Below the pieces are notes generated by a model, which was not told where the DNA came from, did no database searches, and saw nothing but the letters and a program-made list of their open reading frames with translations. This document shows, one piece after another, positions 350 to 57,282 of a stretch of 64,000 bases of DNA (its first letter is position 1; every line of letters starts with the position of its first letter). Location of the stretch: positions 7,537-71,536 of the forward strand of contig CAZVBM010000002.1 of assembly GCA_964625885.1 (NCBI GenBank), in the 5' to 3' direction. Made by a program: the position numbers and the translations under genes. This DNA comes from an uncultured Candidatus Saccharibacteria bacterium. GTDB lineage: Bacteria; Patescibacteriota; Saccharimonadia; Saccharimonadales; Saccharimonadaceae.

Positions 350-3166
350 TTACTTCTTAAAGTATTGTTTCAAATATTGCCCAGTGTATGACTCGCCAAC
401 CCGACTAACATGTTCAGGCGTGCCGGTCGCAACGATTTCGCCGCCACCTTCACCACCTTCTGGGCCAAGATCAATAATCCAATCGGCTGATTTAATTACT
501 TCCAAGTTGTGCTCAATTACCACCACCGTGTTGCCTTCGTCAACTAATTTTTGAATAATATCAAGCAATCGCGCCACGTCGTCAATATGAAGTCCCGTGG
601 TTGGCTCATCAAGGATATAAAGTGTTTTACCAGTAGAGCGACGCGACAGTTCGGTGGCTAACTTAACTCGCTGCGCTTCACCGCCAGAAAGTGTCGTGGC
701 CGATTGACCGAGACCAATATAGCCTAGGCCGACTTCAACCATGGTGTCTAGCTTGCGTTTTAGATTTGGCAGGTTCTTAAAGAATTCAGCCGCTTCTTCA
801 ATCGTCATATCAAGCACATCGCTAATCGACTTACCTTTGTATTTAATCTCTAGAACTTCTTTGTTATAACGCCGACCATGACACTCGTCACAAGTCACGT
901 AAACATCTGGCAAAAAGTGCATCTCGATCTTTTTGACACCGTCGCCCTGACAAGCCTCACAGCGACCGCCTTTGACATTAAAACTAAAACGACCAGCTTT
1001 ATAACCACGTAAGTTGGCTTCGGGTAGCGACGCGAACAGATCGCGAATTTGCGTAAATAAGCCCGTATAAGTTGCTGGATTAGAACGCGGCGTACGCCCA
1101 ATCGCCGACTGATCAATCACGATGACTTTATCAATCTTTTCTAAGCCCTCAACACCATTGTGCTTGCCAGCGATTTCTTTGGCTCGATAAAACCGCGCCA
1201 TCAATTCACGCGCTAATATTTGATTAACCAGGGTAGATTTACCAGAGCCCGACACGCCAGTCACGCAAGTCAAAACGCCAATTGGGAAGCTAACATCAAT
1301 CTTTTTTAGATTGTGCTCACTAGCGCCTAAGACTGTGATCGCCTGATCTTTCTTAACCGCGCGGCGCTTCGCCGGCAAAGCGATTTTCTTTTTGCCACCC
1401 ATGTATTGCCCAGTGATGCTAGCTGGATTTTGCATCACCTCTTCGGGCGTACCAGCCGCGACGATTTCACCACCATGTTTACCAGCACCTGGACCAACAT
1501 CAATCAGATAATCGGCCTGACGAATCGTATCTTCGTCGTGCTCCACGACCAAAACTGTATTACCTAAGTCACGTAAATGTCTAAGCGTATCAAGTAGACG
1601 ATTATTATCACGCTGATGCAAACCGATTGATGGTTCGTCTAAAACATAAAGCACACCTTGTAAGCCAGAGCCAATTTGTGTTGCCAGACGGATGCGCTGT
1701 GATTCACCACCAGAGAGCGTATTAGCCGCTCGCCCAAGCGCCAAATAATTCAAACCAACATCGTGCAAGAAATCCAAGCGCGCCATAATTTCTTTGATAA
1801 TTGGCCGAGCGATTAGCATTTTTTCGTCCGACAATTTGATATGGGCAAAATACTCCACCGCTCGATCCACTGGTAAATCACTGACGTCCATAATACTTTT
1901 ATCAGCCACCGTGACCGCCAAAACTTCTGGCTTGAGTCGGCGACCTTTGCAAGCGTGGCAAGGAATTTCGCGCATAAAACGCTCGATATCTTTGCGAATA
2001 AATTCGGAGTCAGTTTCACGATGACGTCGCTCCAAGTTAGGGATCACCCCTTCGAAAATCGTGTCAAACGACCGGCCATTGCCAGCCTCCACGCTATAAG
2101 TATGGTCGCCAGTGCCATATAAAATTAACTGAACTTGATCTTTGGATAGTTTCTTAATCGGCACGCGCAAACTAAAGCCGTTCGCCTCAGCCACCACACT
2201 CAGGCGTTTGAGATACCAACTCTCATAACCAAGGCGATTATATGGCCGGATGCCACCCTCAGCAATAGTTAGGTTTGGATTTAAAACTAAACTTGAATCA
2301 ATCTCCTGACGAATACCCAGTCCAGTACAAACTGGACAAGCACCTAATGGCGCATTGAAACTAAACAAACGCGGTTCGAGTTCAGGAATGTTAACTTCTG
2401 GATGGACTGGACAGGCGTAGCGCAAGGAATAGTCAACGATTTCTTCCGTGTCAGCATCCAGAATTTCCACCACTTCGTTGCCGTGCTGTAAGGCTTGCTC
2501 AACCGAGTTGGTCAAACGCGCGCTCAAATCTGGACTCACTACCAAACGATCAACCACCAGCTCGATAGTATGTTTGTAGCTCTTTTGTAATTCAGGAAAT
2601 TCGTCCAAGTCATAAATCACACCATTAACCCGCACCCGGGCGTAGCCTTGCTTGGCATACTCGGCCGGAACATGCGCAAACTCACCCTTTTTTGCCTTAA
2701 CCAGTGGCGCCAAAATAATAATTCGCTTGCCCATAAAAGTCGCAGTGATTTCATCGATAATTGATTGCTCAGTTTGGCGCGAGACCTCACGGCCACAAAT
2801 CGGACAGTGCGGTACACCAACGCGAGCAAACAAGAGGCGCATATAGTCATAAATCTCGGTCACGGTTGCTACGGTTGAACGCGGATTGCGCGAAGCGGTT
2901 TTTTGATCAATTGAAATCGCTGGCGACAGGCCGGTAATCATATCAACGTCGGGTTTGTCCATGATGCCTAAGAATTGCCGCGCATAGCTAGACAAGCTCT
3001 CAACATAACGACGCTGGCCCTCGGCGTAAATCGTATCAAACGCCAAGGTTGATTTACCCGAACCAGACAAGCCAGTAATCACCACCAGCTTATCACGCGG
3101 AATCTTTAGATCGATATTTTTCAAATTGTGCTGACGCGCACCTTTTATCTCAATATAATCTTGCAT
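350..3166 (-). CDS. uvrA: Excinuclease ABC subunit A (UvrA)
   Basis: 938 aa with two ABC ATPase modules ([20 protein letters not shown]; LSGGE signatures) and CxxC zinc-finger pairs. The length and N-terminus [18 protein letters not shown] are typical of UvrA. Confidence 0.97.
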
Positions 3167-32265: not shown

Positions 32266-32410
32266 ATCCCACCGGGAAGGTTCGTTCGCTTTGCTTCCGA
32301 ACGCTCCGCCCGAACGCCAGATTAGTTTTGCTAACGCAAAACATCTGGGTTCGGTCCTGATGCGAAGCATCAAAAAAGAATACCCCAGCCGTTGGCTGAG
32401 GTATTCTTTT
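32266..32410 (-). repeat. tRNA-Glu-matched trailer unit: terminator-like hairpin, T-arm-derived palindrome and a 13-nt copy of the tRNA 3' part
   Basis: atcccaccgggaa at 32266-32278 repeats 32416-32428 inside the tRNA. ccgaacgccagat (32310-32322) and atctgggttcgg (32343-32354) form a hairpin made of tRNA-Glu T-arm sequence around gttttgctaacgcaaaac. Confidence 0.7.
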
Positions 32411-32485
32411 TGGTGATCCCACCGGGAATCGAACCCAGATTGCCAGGATGAAAACCTGGTGTCCTAACCGTTAGACGATGGGACC
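32411..32485 (-). tRNA. tRNA-Glu (anticodon UUC), CCA encoded
   Basis: Hand-folded cloverleaf: GGTCCCA/TGGGATC acceptor, anticodon loop TTTTCAT, T-arm CTGGG-TTCGATT-CCCGG. Confidence 0.9.
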
Positions 32486-38957: not shown

Positions 38958-39335
38958 TCCTCCGTCGCTATCCGTTGGATAGCTATGGAGGATTTTTTGT
39001 ACATCTAGGTAGGGCGAGAACCTGACTCGCCAGTTGGCGGGAGGTTCGGCGTAGCGCAGCGAAGCGAAAAAGTGTTTACATTTTTTCGCAAGCAAGCGAA
39101 GGAGCGAGCAAAGCGAGCGATGTCCTGCCGGGTGCACCATTAAAAAATAGCTACATTGTGGCCATTTTTTAATGGTCTATACCCAGACAGATTTGATTCT
39201 GCGGCGCGGCAGATTTAGCTGACGCAAGCCGCAGGTTCGGCGGAGGCGAAATGAGAAAAGAAAGCACTGTAGGTATTTTCTTTTCGAATGAGCCAGAGGA
39301 GGCAAAGCCGATGTCCTGCCACGCACCCATCACCC
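38958..39335 (+). repeat. Two tandem tRNA-Arg-matched units, each ending in a copy of the tRNA 3' part
   Basis: gtcctgccgggtgcacca (38940-38957) is repeated exactly at 39122-39139 and degenerately at 39313-39329. T-stem 5' copies lie at 39038-39049 (diverged) and 39228-39240 (12/13). Confidence 0.85.
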
Positions 39336-45959: not shown

Positions 45960-46019
45960 AAAAAGCAATTCCCCGGCTATAATCCCAACCCCGTAAAATA
46001 AGCAAAAAACACTTCCACC

Positions 46020-46339
46020 CAGAAACACCTCGTGTAAACGAGGTGTTAATTTTAGTGAGACATCGCTCACCGCGTTCGCTCCTCCGCTCCGAAAGGGTCG
46101 AAAGCAAGCTTTCGCGTTTCTTTCGTCGCTACGCCGAACTCACGACTTGTTTTGCTAGTGAGACATCGCTCATCCGCCAATTGGCGGATTCACTCCTCCG
46201 CTTGCTTGCGAAAAAATGTAAACACTTTTTCGCTTCACTGCGCTACGCCGAACTCATTTTTGCTACGCAAAAATCTGAGTTCTCGTCTCAGCCAAAATCA
46301 AAATCCTCCATAGCAATTCAAAAGGATTGCGACGGAGGA
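46020..46339 (-). repeat. Two tandem tRNA-Lys-matched units downstream of tRNA-Lys
   Basis: tagtgagacatcgctca occurs twice (46053-46069 and 46156-46172). cgaactcacgac at 46135-46146 equals 46359-46370 inside the tRNA. The 61-nt block at 46193-46253 is the reverse complement of 39044-39104 (59/61). Confidence 0.85.
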
Positions 46340-46416
46340 TGGTGGATCTGGTGAGACTCGAACTCACGACACCCTGCTTAAGAGGCAGGTGCTCTAACCG
46401 GCTGAGCTACAGATCC
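46340..46416 (-). tRNA. tRNA-Lys (anticodon CUU), CCA encoded
   Basis: Hand-folded from the reverse complement: GGATCTG acceptor, anticodon loop CTCTTAA, T-arm GTGAG-TTCGAGT-CTCAC. Confidence 0.9.
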
Positions 46417-47315: not shown

Positions 47316-47568
47316 AGACCGCATTTGAGGCTTTAGTCTCAAATAAGGTATGCTCGGCGTAGAAGAGAAGCGAACTCTTCGATAATTTCGCGGTCAGCGA
47401 AATTACATGTTGAGCCCAAGAAAACCAGCAACCTAAAAAATAGTTTTCATGGCGCGAGACTATATTCTCGCCACCCGCACCAAATCGTATTTGAGATTTT
47501 AATCTCAAATGCGAGTTGGCTCAGCATGGAAGAGAAGCGAACTCTTCGTTCTCGCCACCAACATCGTA
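47316..47568 (+). repeat. Two tandem tRNA-Gly-matched units between tRNA-Gly and tRNA-Arg(UCU)
   Basis: attctcgccacccgcacca (47297-47315) is repeated at 47463-47481. A degenerate third copy, ttctcgccacc, lies at 47548-47558. Both units start with an atttgag...ctcaaat hairpin and share gaagagaagcgaactcttcg. Confidence 0.85.
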
Positions 47569-47676: not shown

Positions 47677-49203
47677 TTAATAAATCGTTTCAATATTTGC
47701 ACCAAGGGAGTTGAGGCGGCGAGCAAAGTCTTCATAACCCCGATTGATTGAGTAGACATTGCGCAAAATCGACTCGCCTTCGGCCGCCAACATCGCTAGC
47801 ATCAACACTACCGCTGGCCTTAGGGCTGGTGGCGTGACAATTTCTGCTGGCTTGAAGTTAGTTGGTCCAGTGATAATAATGCGGTGCGGATCAATTAGTT
47901 GAGTCGAGACATTTAATTTACTCAGCTCAGCCAAGTAAATCGCCCGGTTCTCGTACACCCAGTCATGAATCATCGTTGGCCCCTCCGCCACCGCCGCAAT
48001 CACCGCAAAAAAGGGCAGGTTATCGATGTTTAAGCCCGGATATGGCATCGGGTGAATTTTATCAACTGAGCAGGTCAACTTGCTCGGCTTTATTGTTATA
48101 TCAACCAGCTTAGTACGCTCATTGCGCGAGAAATAAACATCAGAAACTTTTAAGTTCGCCCCCATGCCCCGCAAAGTTTCGATTTCAACTTCGAGAAAAT
48201 CGATTGGCGCACGCTTAACGGTAATCTCCGAATTGGTTACCAGGCCAGCAGCGATGAAGCTCATAGCTTCAATCGGGTCTTCGCTAATTTCATAACTAAC
48301 GTTTTTATTAATATCGGCAAGACCCTGAACTCTTAGAAGCGTCGTACCGATCCCTTCAATGCGCACCCCTAATTTTTCTAGGAAGAAGCAGACGTCTTGC
48401 ACCATATAGTTCGGACTAGCGTTGTGAATTTCAGTCACGCCACTATGCAAGGCTGCCGCCATCAAGACGTTTTCTGTTACGGTATCACCTCGCTCCACCA
48501 AGACAATCTTGACTGGCTTTTTAGGGTCAACCGCTGAAACTTCAGCTTTATAAAACCCGCCAGCAGTATTGACGCTTAGGCCAAATGATTCTAAGGCCTT
48601 AAGATGCGGCTCAACCGTACGTGCCCCAAGATTACAGCCACCAGCGTACGGTAGCTTGAAGCGCTTATTTTTGTGAAGCAAGACCCCCATTAGCATAATC
48701 ACGCTACGGGTCATACGAGCCGACTCGAGGTTAATTTGGTTAGTATCAAAGCTAACTGGTGGAATTATTTCTAAATCACGATGATTGTTAAGCCAACGAA
48801 CTTTGACGCCCAAACTCTCAATCACTTCAATGATGCGATAAACTTCTTCAATGTTAGCGACGTGCCTGAGCACAGTCTTGCCACGGTTAAGTAACGAAGC
48901 GCAAAGTAGCGCTACAGCCGCGTTTTTTGAGGTATTAATGTTAATTGAGCCGCTTAGTTTCTTGCCACCATTGATACGAAAATGGATCACTCCCTTTTGG
49001 CCAAACGTCAACAGCCCCACTTTTAAAACCTCGCTGATCCTTTCGATCATCTCGAGACTAATGTTTTGTTTACCTTTCTCAATGCGGTTAATCGCACTCT
49101 GGGAAGTACCAACTTTGACCGCCAAATCAGCCTGTGTCATGTTTTTTTGCAAACGCGCGCGCTGAATCAAGTCCCCCACTAAACGTTTATAATTCTTTAC
49201 CAT
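47677..49203 (-). CDS. murA: XRE-type HTH domain fused to UDP-N-acetylglucosamine 1-carboxyvinyltransferase (MurA)
   Basis: The N-terminal 65 aa (LIQRARLQKNMTQADLAVKVGTSQSAINRIEKGKQNISLEMIERISEVL) form a classic HTH_3. The rest is a MurA/EPSP-fold protein (SKNAAVALLCASLL; GGCNLGARTVEPH with the catalytic Cys). Confidence 0.85.
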   Translation of the reverse strand: MVKNYKRLVGDLIQRARLQKNMTQADLAVKVGTSQSAINRIEKGKQNISLEMIERISEVLKVGLLTFGQKGVIHFRINGGKKLSGSININTSKNAAVALLCASLLNRGKTVLRHVANIEEVYRIIEVIESLGVKVRWLNNHRDLEIIPPVSFDTNQINLESARMTRSVIMLMGVLLHKNKRFKLPYAGGCNLGARTVEPHLKALESFGLSVNTAGGFYKAEVSAVDPKKPVKIVLVERGDTVTENVLMAAALHSGVTEIHNASPNYMVQDVCFFLEKLGVRIEGIGTTLLRVQGLADINKNVSYEISEDPIEAMSFIAAGLVTNSEITVKRAPIDFLEVEIETLRGMGANLKVSDVYFSRNERTKLVDITIKPSKLTCSVDKIHPMPYPGLNIDNLPFFAVIAAVAEGPTMIHDWVYENRAIYLAELSKLNVSTQLIDPHRIIITGPTNFKPAEIVTPPALRPAVVLMLAMLAAEGESILRNVYSINRGYEDFARRLNSLGANIETIY

Positions 49204-54758: not shown

Positions 54759-54835
54759 CGGGGCGTGGCGCAGCTTGGTAGCGCGCGCGGTTTGGGACCG
54801 TGAGGTCGCAAGTTCAAATCTTGTCGCCCCGACCA
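54759..54835 (+). tRNA. tRNA-Pro (anticodon UGG), CCA encoded
   Basis: Hand-folded: acceptor CGGGGCG/CGCCCCG, anticodon loop TTTGGGA, T-arm GCAAG-TTCAAAT-CTTGT. Confidence 0.9.
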
Positions 54836-55030
54836 AATAAAATTAGTCACCTTCATGGTGGCTGATTTTATTTGACCACGGAATGGTGAGTTGAACTTGC
54901 GACGTTTTGCGCCAGCAAAACAAGTCGCAAGTCGTGAAGTGAGTGAAGCGAGTGAAAAGCAGGCCGAAGGCTTGTTTTTCCGAGCGAACGAGCGGAAGAG
55001 CGAGTAATACGAGCGATAATCTTGTCCCAA
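54836..55030 (+). repeat. tRNA-Pro(UGG)-matched trailer unit
   Basis: Elements in order: a terminator-like hairpin at 54836-54876; ttgaacttgcgac (54891-54903), the inverse of the tRNA T-arm 5' side; the inner hairpin gttttgcgccagcaaaac; a direct copy gtcgcaagt (54924-32); a central hairpin GAAAAGC..G.TTTTTC (54954-80); and a 3' copy aatcttgtc (55018-26). Confidence 0.8.
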
Positions 55031-56665: not shown

Positions 56666-56747
56666 TCCTCCTTCGCTGTCTTCTGGACAGCTACGGAGGA
56701 TGCAGTCCGTAGCCTTTGGCGAAGGAGTGCATTTTATCAACACGCAT

Positions 56748-56824: not shown

Positions 56825-57282
56825 TAAAAATTGACTCACCTTTTGGTGGGTCAATTTTTATCTGTTGCGCGCAACATGTTTGACTGGCGACCTTTTGCGT
56901 AGCAAAAATTGGTCGCCTGTCGTGGAGTGAACGAAGCGAAGAAAAGCGCGTAGCATTTTTCTGAGCGAGTGAACGGAGGAGCGAAACGAAGTGGAGCGAT
57001 AATCAGGCCTGATACTATCGTAATATTGGTGGCTGATTTTATTTGGCCACGGAGTGGTGAGTTGAACAGGCGTGCCTGTTCGCGAATGAACTCAGCCTAC
57101 ATACGATCATGTGACCGGTTTAATAATTACTTTGAAGGGAATCTCGCAGTTACGACGGAGAGCTTAGCGCAGACGGCCCTGTAACGACAGGCGCCGTCAA
57201 GTGTCCCTGAAAAGTAATTATTAAATATCAGGTCGTATTAGAAATAGACAAGCAGGGTGGACGAAGCCCATAATCAGGCCCT
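56825..57282 (+). repeat. Three tandem tRNA-Pro(CGG)-matched units. The middle one carries the type-2 structured insert.
   Basis: Partial T-loop/T-stem 3' copies lie at 57001-57009 (aatcaggcc), 57225-57235 (atatcaggtcg) and 57270-57281 (ataatcaggccc). T-stem 5' copies are ggtcgcctgt (56911-20) and gcctgttcg (57074-82). Confidence 0.8.
57117..57235 (+). ncRNA. Candidate structured element (type-2 insert), copy 1. Strand and RNA status unproven.
   Basis: A 21-bp closing helix (ttaataattactttgaaggga / tccctgaaaagtaattattaa, with 2 mismatches) encloses a core that is about 85% identical to 61247-61310. Confidence 0.5.

Follow-up and report, generated by a model that had tools for sequence, protein, structure and literature searches.

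The two units that lie behind tRNA-Lys(CUU) in a 64,000-nt stretch of DNA (the window), which its gene content assigns to Saccharibacteria, are probably members of a family of tRNA trailer modules of the RtT type. RtT (Rfam RF00391; gene rttR), the 178-bp repeats behind tRNA-Tyr in the E. coli tyrT operon, entered the literature with the sequencing of those repeats. To our knowledge it has no settled function, and it had been recorded, in essence, behind a single tRNA and in a single bacterial order. When read along the tRNA strand, a complete module consists of a hairpin immediately 3′ of CCA, a decayed antisense copy of the 3′ part of the tRNA, a small capping hairpin, a sense copy of the 5′ side of the T stem followed by TTCG, a conserved purine-rich core with one hairpin, and a sense tRNA copy that runs from T-loop position 59 onward and extends through CCA in the best-preserved copies. 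The flanks of these modules track the adjoining tRNA in many species and for many specificities, while the cores are shared, swapped and occasionally inverted, and RtT has the same anatomy and spacing. The initial annotation of the Lys locus overlooked the antisense T-arm copy ahead of the units, and it did not recognize that what it called an insert is a conserved core family common to different tRNAs. It likewise missed that the E. coli RtT repeats are built on essentially this plan, and hence that this is not a new kind of element.

The Lys array is read on the minus strand, beginning with tRNA-Lys(CUU) itself (46340-46416; CCA encoded; found by ARAGORN and with 72.9 bits for the Rfam tRNA model), which is the origin of the T-arm sequences copied in both units. 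Next comes a segment (46294-46339), read directly from the sequence, in which a terminator-like trailer hairpin, tcctccgtcgc..gctatggagga (46304-46339), is followed by ttttgatttt. Then, at 46275-46293, the T arm of tRNA-Lys recurs in degenerate antisense form (ggCTGAGACGAGAACTCAG / ggctgagacgagaactcag; alignment score 26.5); this copy departs from the perfect complement of the T arm, gtgagactcgaactcac, and has the YGAGAAC loop variant that is also present in E. coli RtT. Folds and mapping place a small hairpin, atttttgc-gta-gcaaaaat (atttttgcgtagcaaaaat), at 46256-46274, and one long hairpin is predicted to form from it, the antisense segment and the gagttc that comes next.

Lys unit 1 (46158-46255, minus strand; nhmmer core profile E=1.7e-13) opens with gagttcg (46249-46255), which copies TTCG and the T-stem 5′ side before it, the 5′ stem being reduced to tgag. 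An 84-nt core with an A/T-stem hairpin and one extra hairpin follows (46165-46248), and the unit ends with the T-loop GT and the T-stem 3′ copy, gtctcac (46158-46164). The linker tagcaaaacaa (46147-46157), which is the 3′ half of a small hairpin, leads into unit 2 (46055-46146, minus strand; E=1.3e-13). This second unit carries an exact 12-nt copy of the variable loop, T-stem 5′ side and TTCG, gtcgtgagttcg (46135-46146), a 73-nt core of a second subtype (46062-46134) and again gtctcac (46055-46061). The cores between the T-stem halves are thus 73-84 nt long, and they are GA/GC-rich. The array is closed by a hairpin (46025-46046) that is shared with a convergent DHFR gene and is terminator-like on the plus strand.

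Re-reading the sequence bore out the initial annotation at this locus: all quoted strings lie where they had been placed, as do the trailer hairpin and the two split-T-arm units 3′ of tRNA-Lys on the minus strand. The string tagtgagacatcgctca is repeated exactly at 46053-69 and 46156-72, and cgaactcacgac stands at 46135-46 and again, letter for letter, at 46359-70 within tRNA-Lys; nowhere else in the 64 kb does it occur exactly. By chance, one 12-mer is expected about 2e-5 times per 320 nt. In both units the copy of the tRNA 3′ side comprises 7 nt (T-loop GT plus T-stem) and then diverges, so that the tails stop before the acceptor strand and CCA, unlike those at the Arg and Gly loci. Because the complete tandem modules at 39140-39329 have a terminator, an antisense copy and a 5′ hairpin half, unit 2 seems to lack the corresponding parts of its own. 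The Lys array is a partly eroded example, with 7-nt tails and a second unit that is without its own hairpin and antisense copy. Contigs of the same species from other samples carry the array unchanged (99.8% identity, no indel). Several Logan short-read contigs (L002-L004, L006 and L126-L128) stop inside tRNA-Lys just before the T arm, plausibly due to the effect on the assembly graph of a T-arm sequence that recurs in the downstream units.

Modules are found behind six of the nine tRNA genes in the window (Glu, Lys, Arg(UCG), Gly, Pro(UGG) and Pro(CGG)), and none is present behind tRNA-His, Arg(UCU) or Pro(GGG). The core profile has five matches in the window (39045-39121, 46062-46138, 46165-46252, 54943-55018 and 56921-57001), every one behind a tRNA. 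Two complete tandem modules follow tRNA-Arg(UCG) on the plus strand (38958-39329). Both contain the hairpin, the antisense copy, the small hairpin, the T-stem 5′ side, the core and the tRNA tail, and the first of these tails (39122-39139) reproduces exactly the last 18 nt of the tRNA, CCA included. Behind tRNA-Gly(UCC) there are two modules, also on the plus strand (47317-47559); the first has an exact 19-nt tRNA tail through CCA (47464-47482) as well as a T-arm copy that is unsplit and has a mutated loop. One module with a short core lies behind tRNA-Glu(UUC) on the minus strand (32266-32411), one behind tRNA-Pro(UGG) on the plus strand (54835-55026) and two behind tRNA-Pro(CGG), likewise on the plus strand (56825-57280). 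The assertion in the initial annotation that unit orientation follows that of the tRNA therefore holds throughout the window: the units at Glu and Lys on the minus strand, and those at Arg, Gly and the two Pro genes on the plus strand, are all co-oriented with their tRNAs.

In the second Pro(CGG) module the same T-loop slot is filled by a different, structured core that is about 190 nt long. This element, which has the conserved centre AATCTCGCAGTTACGACGGAGAGCTTAGCGC, occurs in the T-loop slot behind Pro(CGG) and Arg(UCG) tRNAs, in the window (57085-57275, plus strand) and in the syntenic contig L007 (18530-18710, minus strand), and it has no match in Rfam or IMG/VR. Hairpins of the TCCTCC..GGAGGA type stand directly 3′ of CCA at three tRNAs (38958-38992, 46304-46339 and 56666-56700), and their 5′ arm could pair with GGAGGAG of the cores. 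Two other features were considered and rejected. A mini-ORF, suggested by GGAGG followed by ATG at the core/tail junction, fails for the absence of the ATG in the Pro units and in most others, and avoidance of TCGA restriction sites as the cause of the altered loops fails on the observed/expected ratio of 0.74 (214 sites), which indicates no strong avoidance. We also note that the MurA protein encoded in the window (EPSP_synthase family; 47677-49203, minus strand) has an N-terminal HTH_3/HTH_31 domain that is kept in the relatives L007 and L126.

The association with tRNA genes extends well beyond the window. In a survey of about 24 Saccharibacteria genomes the core profile yielded 52 real matches, of which 40 are on the same strand as a tRNA and no more than 700 nt downstream of it, two are inverted in place and about ten have no detected tRNA. 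The co-oriented copies involve ten tRNA specificities (Pro, Arg, Ser, Met, Lys, Tyr, Phe, Asp, Ala and Gln). These counts uphold the proposal that the units are tied to the tRNA gene, and the cores for which no tRNA was detected are not scattered at random positions: two lie in the D-loop of a partial copy of tRNA-Glu, four follow a gene-like sequence that ends in CCA, two are at a contig edge and two are true orphans. The few orphan copies are in L086+ and L045. The gene-like sequence is unannotated, ends in ...GCGAGCCA followed by a terminator, and is not called as a tRNA or tmRNA by ARAGORN or Rfam; the modules behind it, in L015, L059 (7080-7335), L067 and L092 (1820-2060), have the split T-arm copy GTCGCGGTTCG..ATCCAGCCGCCGG. 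The partial tRNA-Glu copies that hold a core in their D-loop, in L060 (2790-3035) and L097 (1-230), both on the minus strand, comprise the 5′ part of the tRNA (acceptor 5′ strand, D arm and anticodon arm), have their own promoter-like box and lie just upstream of the real gene. For the real gene in L060, ARAGORN returns tRNA-Asp(GTC) on a Glu-like body, and an anticodon switch may be the reason. A separate tRNA duplication is seen in L007 (18360-18470, minus strand): about 90 nt upstream of the true tRNA-His gene stands a 23-nt repeat of its 5′ end, together with 4 nt of leader.

The unit ends match the adjoining tRNA, as the initial annotation had proposed for the Lys pair. In 22 of 27 parsed units the T-stem 3′ side after the core agrees with that of the adjoining tRNA at five of five positions, and the mean agreement (4.70) is far above that of 2000 permuted tRNA pairings (mean 2.85, maximum 3.31). 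Of 76 tRNAs in Saccharibacteria loci, about 40 have a second copy of a tail 12-mer at a distance of 130-185 nt downstream, compared with roughly 2.6 expected. An antisense copy of the tRNA 3′ end accompanies 42 of the 76, starting some 35-40 nt after CCA and usually at TGG; the complement of the T-stem 5′ side is essentially perfect in these copies, and about half of the remainder is decayed. In a pattern scan of one genome per species, with a pattern that detects one core family only, the matches in Saccharibacteria loci with a GC content of 0.40-0.52 stood 60-175 nt downstream from a tRNA on the same strand, and high-GC genomes gave chance matches. A metagenome scan with the type-B motif returned almost solely chance matches to coding sequence in high-GC DNA. 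We found no literature on tRNA-linked repeats in Saccharibacteria or Patescibacteria.

Duplication of a tRNA 3′ end starting in the T-loop is, as Williams reportedly set out in 2002, the classic signature of integrative elements, and the units might accordingly be stacked remnants, resembling attL and attR, of deleted islands or prophages that were inserted by an integrase at the tRNA T-loop. The position at which the duplications start fits this signature, arrays of tails do occur, and behind the Pro tRNA of L007 an apparently original tail with a native-type terminator is found at the far end. However, the repeats are merely 130-185 nt from the tRNA with no ORF between, the window has no distant tail copy, no integrase lies beside the tRNAs inspected, and phage and plasmid matches are absent. 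A conserved core within the T-loop and an antisense copy are both foreign to att sites, and the majority of tRNAs in these genomes of about 1 Mb are affected. We therefore give this explanation very little credence.

In the syntenic contig L007 (whose Tmk is 55% identical), the antisense segment, small hairpin and T-stem 5′ side behind tRNA-Lys are nearly base-for-base those of the window, whereas the trailer hairpin and the core differ, the latter being of the type that stands behind Arg unit 2 in the window. More generally, orthologous tRNAs in different species have different core types. For Pro(CGG), the flanks in the window and in L115 are about 95% identical and the cores are paralogous or different. 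Within the window, the core of Lys unit 1 and that of the tRNA-Arg unit at 39049-39121 are 96% identical over 56 nt, with two differences. In L057 and L121 the segment TCGGCG..GAGCGAT is inverted between the same T-stem halves, and the slot is shared by at least five families of cores that are unrelated to one another. Based upon these type differences, near-identities, swaps, inversions and multiple families, the cores behave as exchangeable cassettes. One family, with cores ending GGGGTCGCGGAACGTGACC|AAGTC, is found behind Pro, Lys and Ile tRNAs (L026, 4280-4385; L044, about 1680-1780, minus strand; L090, 1620-1660) and shows compensatory changes in its terminal hairpin (GGTCGC/GTGACC versus GGCTGC/GTGGCC).

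The main rival to our interpretation takes up this behavior. The cores could be small non-autonomous mobile DNA cassettes that enter the T- or D-loops of spare partial tRNA copies, in which case the split T arm would be an insertion scar and no RNA function would be needed. Such cassettes would account for near-identical cores in different tRNA contexts of one genome, for unrelated families in one slot, for the Pro(CGG) pair with its matching flanks, for the two exact inversions, for the cores in the D-loops of the partial tRNA-Glu copies and for the few orphans, and they accord with structure scores that are equal on both strands. Yet the core copies examined have no transposase-like or recombinase gene beside them, and they show neither terminal inverted repeats beyond TCG/CGA nor a regular target duplication; the number of loop bases kept at the junctions (two or three) depends on the tRNA. 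Searches of IMG/VR and of phage and plasmid collections gave no match, the orientation bias is 40:2, and no empty T-arm copy turned up among the core-bearing loci. Mobility also leaves unexplained the antisense copy and the occurrence of the same architecture, with RNA helices supported by covariation, in RtT. We consider mobile cassettes an unlikely explanation of the modules, if one that deserves to be taken seriously.

A third possibility starts from the antisense copy. The tRNA end, the hairpin and the antisense copy make up one extended quasi-palindrome that starts at TGG opposite CCA, and the modules could be neutral by-products of template switching at the hairpin terminator, in which extension of the palindrome generates inverted and then direct copies with neither function nor mobility. 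The antisense copy is decayed with an unbiased substitution spectrum, as would be expected of such by-products; the spectrum shows no transition bias and no wobble or DGR-like mutation bias. Neutral by-products are, however, difficult to reconcile with a 30-mer, GAGCGGAGGAGCGAAACGAAGTGGAGCGAT, that is identical in at least eight species at different tRNAs, with the retention of modules in very small genomes and their stability between samples, or with the same architecture and spacing in E. coli. We regard this origin as very improbable. Both template-switch products and integrase scars fit less of the evidence.

The preferred reading, in which the modules are trailer elements of the RtT type, is compatible with the predicted structures. 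Minimum-energy folds of whole modules contain a closing helix that pairs the tRNA tail with the 5′ part of the antisense copy; a long hairpin made of the antisense T-stem, the small hairpin and the T-stem 5′ side; and the core hairpin. Three of four folded modules have z-scores between -3.3 and -5.1, and the fourth has -1.4. The region of Lys unit 1 scores -4.8, and unit 2, when folded by itself, does not exceed shuffled sequences in stability (z about 0). In the fold of the unit 1 module the antisense segment 46275-46293 pairs with the tail copy; the fold of an overlapping stretch is without this helix. Although the sense strand folds better by 6.5 kcal/mol on average before composition is controlled for, this advantage disappears under dinucleotide shuffling (z of -2.6 versus -2.5), and strand assignment by folding energy was thus discarded. 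Since the controlled scores are equal on both strands, folding gives no strand call and does not separate RNA constraint from a DNA palindrome, and neither the folding z-scores nor the antisense substitution spectrum marks the tRNA strand as the active RNA. RNAalifold on a MAFFT alignment of the cores was uninformative, as the hairpins of different subtypes do not align, and the full-module alignment was too ragged for a covariance model.

In these folds the closing helix amounts to the acceptor/T-stem stack of the cognate tRNA, and the module is most likely a trailer RNA closed by a helix that imitates this stack. By analogy with E. coli, transcription would run on from the tRNA through the module, and the module would be freed as a small RNA, which would adopt a three-way junction in which antisense segment and tRNA tail reproduce the cognate acceptor/T-stem stack. 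Because of this resemblance, the enzymes that process tRNA ends may also set the 3′ end of the module RNA. The exposed GA/GCGA-rich strands could bind a putative partner. Unequal recombination of the tRNA tail with its copies might lengthen and shorten the arrays, and the same recombination would keep the flanks matched to the tRNA. Co-transcription is made uncertain by the terminator-like hairpin that separates tRNA from module, and a full tRNA-like 3′ end is not always maintained, since many tails are truncated, including both Lys tails. The inverted cores in L057 and L121 are not predicted by a fixed RNA design.

The E. coli tyrT/tyrV locus (L131; K-12 1286000-1288200), when analysed with the same scripts, displays this plan in detail. 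An antisense copy, GGGGAAGGATGAGAAGCTTCGA, lies at +54-81 after CCA, with its loop changed from TTCGAA to TGAGAA as in many Saccharibacteria modules, and in the tyrT/tyrV units it is followed by AAGGTTCG. The units continue with a GC/GA-rich core with one hairpin and end with an exact 18-nt tRNA-Tyr tail whose CCA is at +157-160. The 3′ end of the annotated rttR RNA is the CCA of this tail, and in the Rfam RtT consensus GgGaaGG pairs with CCuuCcC. The spacer between tyrT and tyrV is itself an RtT unit. The helices of RtT have covariation support, and one of them frames a tandem GA motif (10.1101/2020.02.04.933952; PMC8250186). In E. coli genomes the number of RtT places ranges from 1 to 14, with a median of 3.

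Sequence similarity between the two groups is slight. As a positive control, the E. coli units score 133-138 bits with the Rfam RtT model (gathering threshold 45 bits), which has no match in the whole window at that threshold and none at E<=10 on 45990-46345. Rfam searches of the window and several other loci at gathering and permissive thresholds gave tRNAs only. A Tyr-linked Saccharibacteria unit (L108:1202-1358) aligns over the full model length and is correctly placed, with 11.7 bits and E=9.9. In the reverse direction, the Saccharibacteria core profile finds solely AGGAGCGAA in the E. coli locus (E=2.2), and pairwise core similarities are marginal (z of 0.5 to 4.5). Since model, profile and pairwise comparisons are all marginal or below significance, common descent with RtT is unproven, and as far as the sequences tell the likeness could be convergent.

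If the family assignment is correct, RtT has gained a second and much larger family of the same anatomy, in a distant genome-reduced phylum and with many tRNA specificities. This family offers natural variation for the RtT problem: the tRNA-derived arms vary with the host tRNA while the core is constant, and therefore what must pair can be separated from what must be recognised. There is also a consequence for annotation: the modules look like fragments of tRNAs, and in these genomes of about 1 Mb most of the 'intergenic' DNA around tRNAs consists of them. More speculatively, and with considerable doubt on our part, the modules may be self-matching cassettes, with a core copied by a templated mechanism into a hairpin-form replica of the adjoining tRNA end, in the T-loop and sometimes the D-loop, or else cognate-specific mimics of the acceptor/T half that tune tRNA sensing, for example in the stringent response. 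Either way, RtT would then be the lone enterobacterial remnant of an ancient and widespread class.

Comparison with known systems sets the modules apart from several other kinds of element. Like the tRNA duplications made by integrative elements, they are direct repeats of the 3′ part of a tRNA from the T-loop, downstream of an intact gene, but neither an element body nor an integrase accompanies them, the distance to the repeat is just about 150 nt, and they contain a core in the T-loop and an antisense copy. They share with MITE and REP-type repeats a short, structured, multicopy and intergenic nature and signs of copying between loci. However, they are bound to tRNA genes, their flanks are copied from the host tRNA and their orientation is strongly biased; moreover, of their ends, TTCGGCG.. 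and ..GAGCGAT, solely TCG/CGA is inverted and the junctions are heterogeneous, so that the terminal inverted repeats and target duplication of a MITE or insertion sequence are not seen. The T arm is interrupted in its loop by an insert, as with T-loop introns and the split or permuted tRNA genes of archaea and red algae, but the units comprise the T arm and 3′ strand only, with an intact tRNA immediately upstream. They have no D or anticodon arm, and ARAGORN and Rfam detect only the upstream tRNA.

RtT is the known system that the modules resemble most fully, despite several differences. The modules stand behind at least ten tRNA specificities in Saccharibacteria, whereas RtT is found behind Tyr only and in Enterobacterales; a terminator-like hairpin, which E. 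coli lacks at this point, separates tRNA from module; and several unrelated core families share one slot and many tails are truncated. The tail of about 19 nt through CCA that is typical of RtT is kept at Arg (39122-39139), at Gly (47464-47482) and in many units elsewhere, compared with 7 nt in the Lys units. Nevertheless, both groups lie downstream of a tRNA on the same strand and often in tandem, as does the Lys array (46055-46339). In both, an antisense T arm with a YGAGAAC loop precedes the T-stem 5′ side with its TTCG; a core that is rich in GC/GA and contains one hairpin comes next, and the unit ends with a tRNA tail, which where complete runs from T-loop to CCA. The spacing is also alike, with the antisense copy at about +55-80 and the tail at about +157-160 in E. 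coli, and the tail at +130-185 in Saccharibacteria. In both, finally, a closing helix is predicted between the antisense segment and the tail, and the Lys array retains the segment that would form it (46275-46293).
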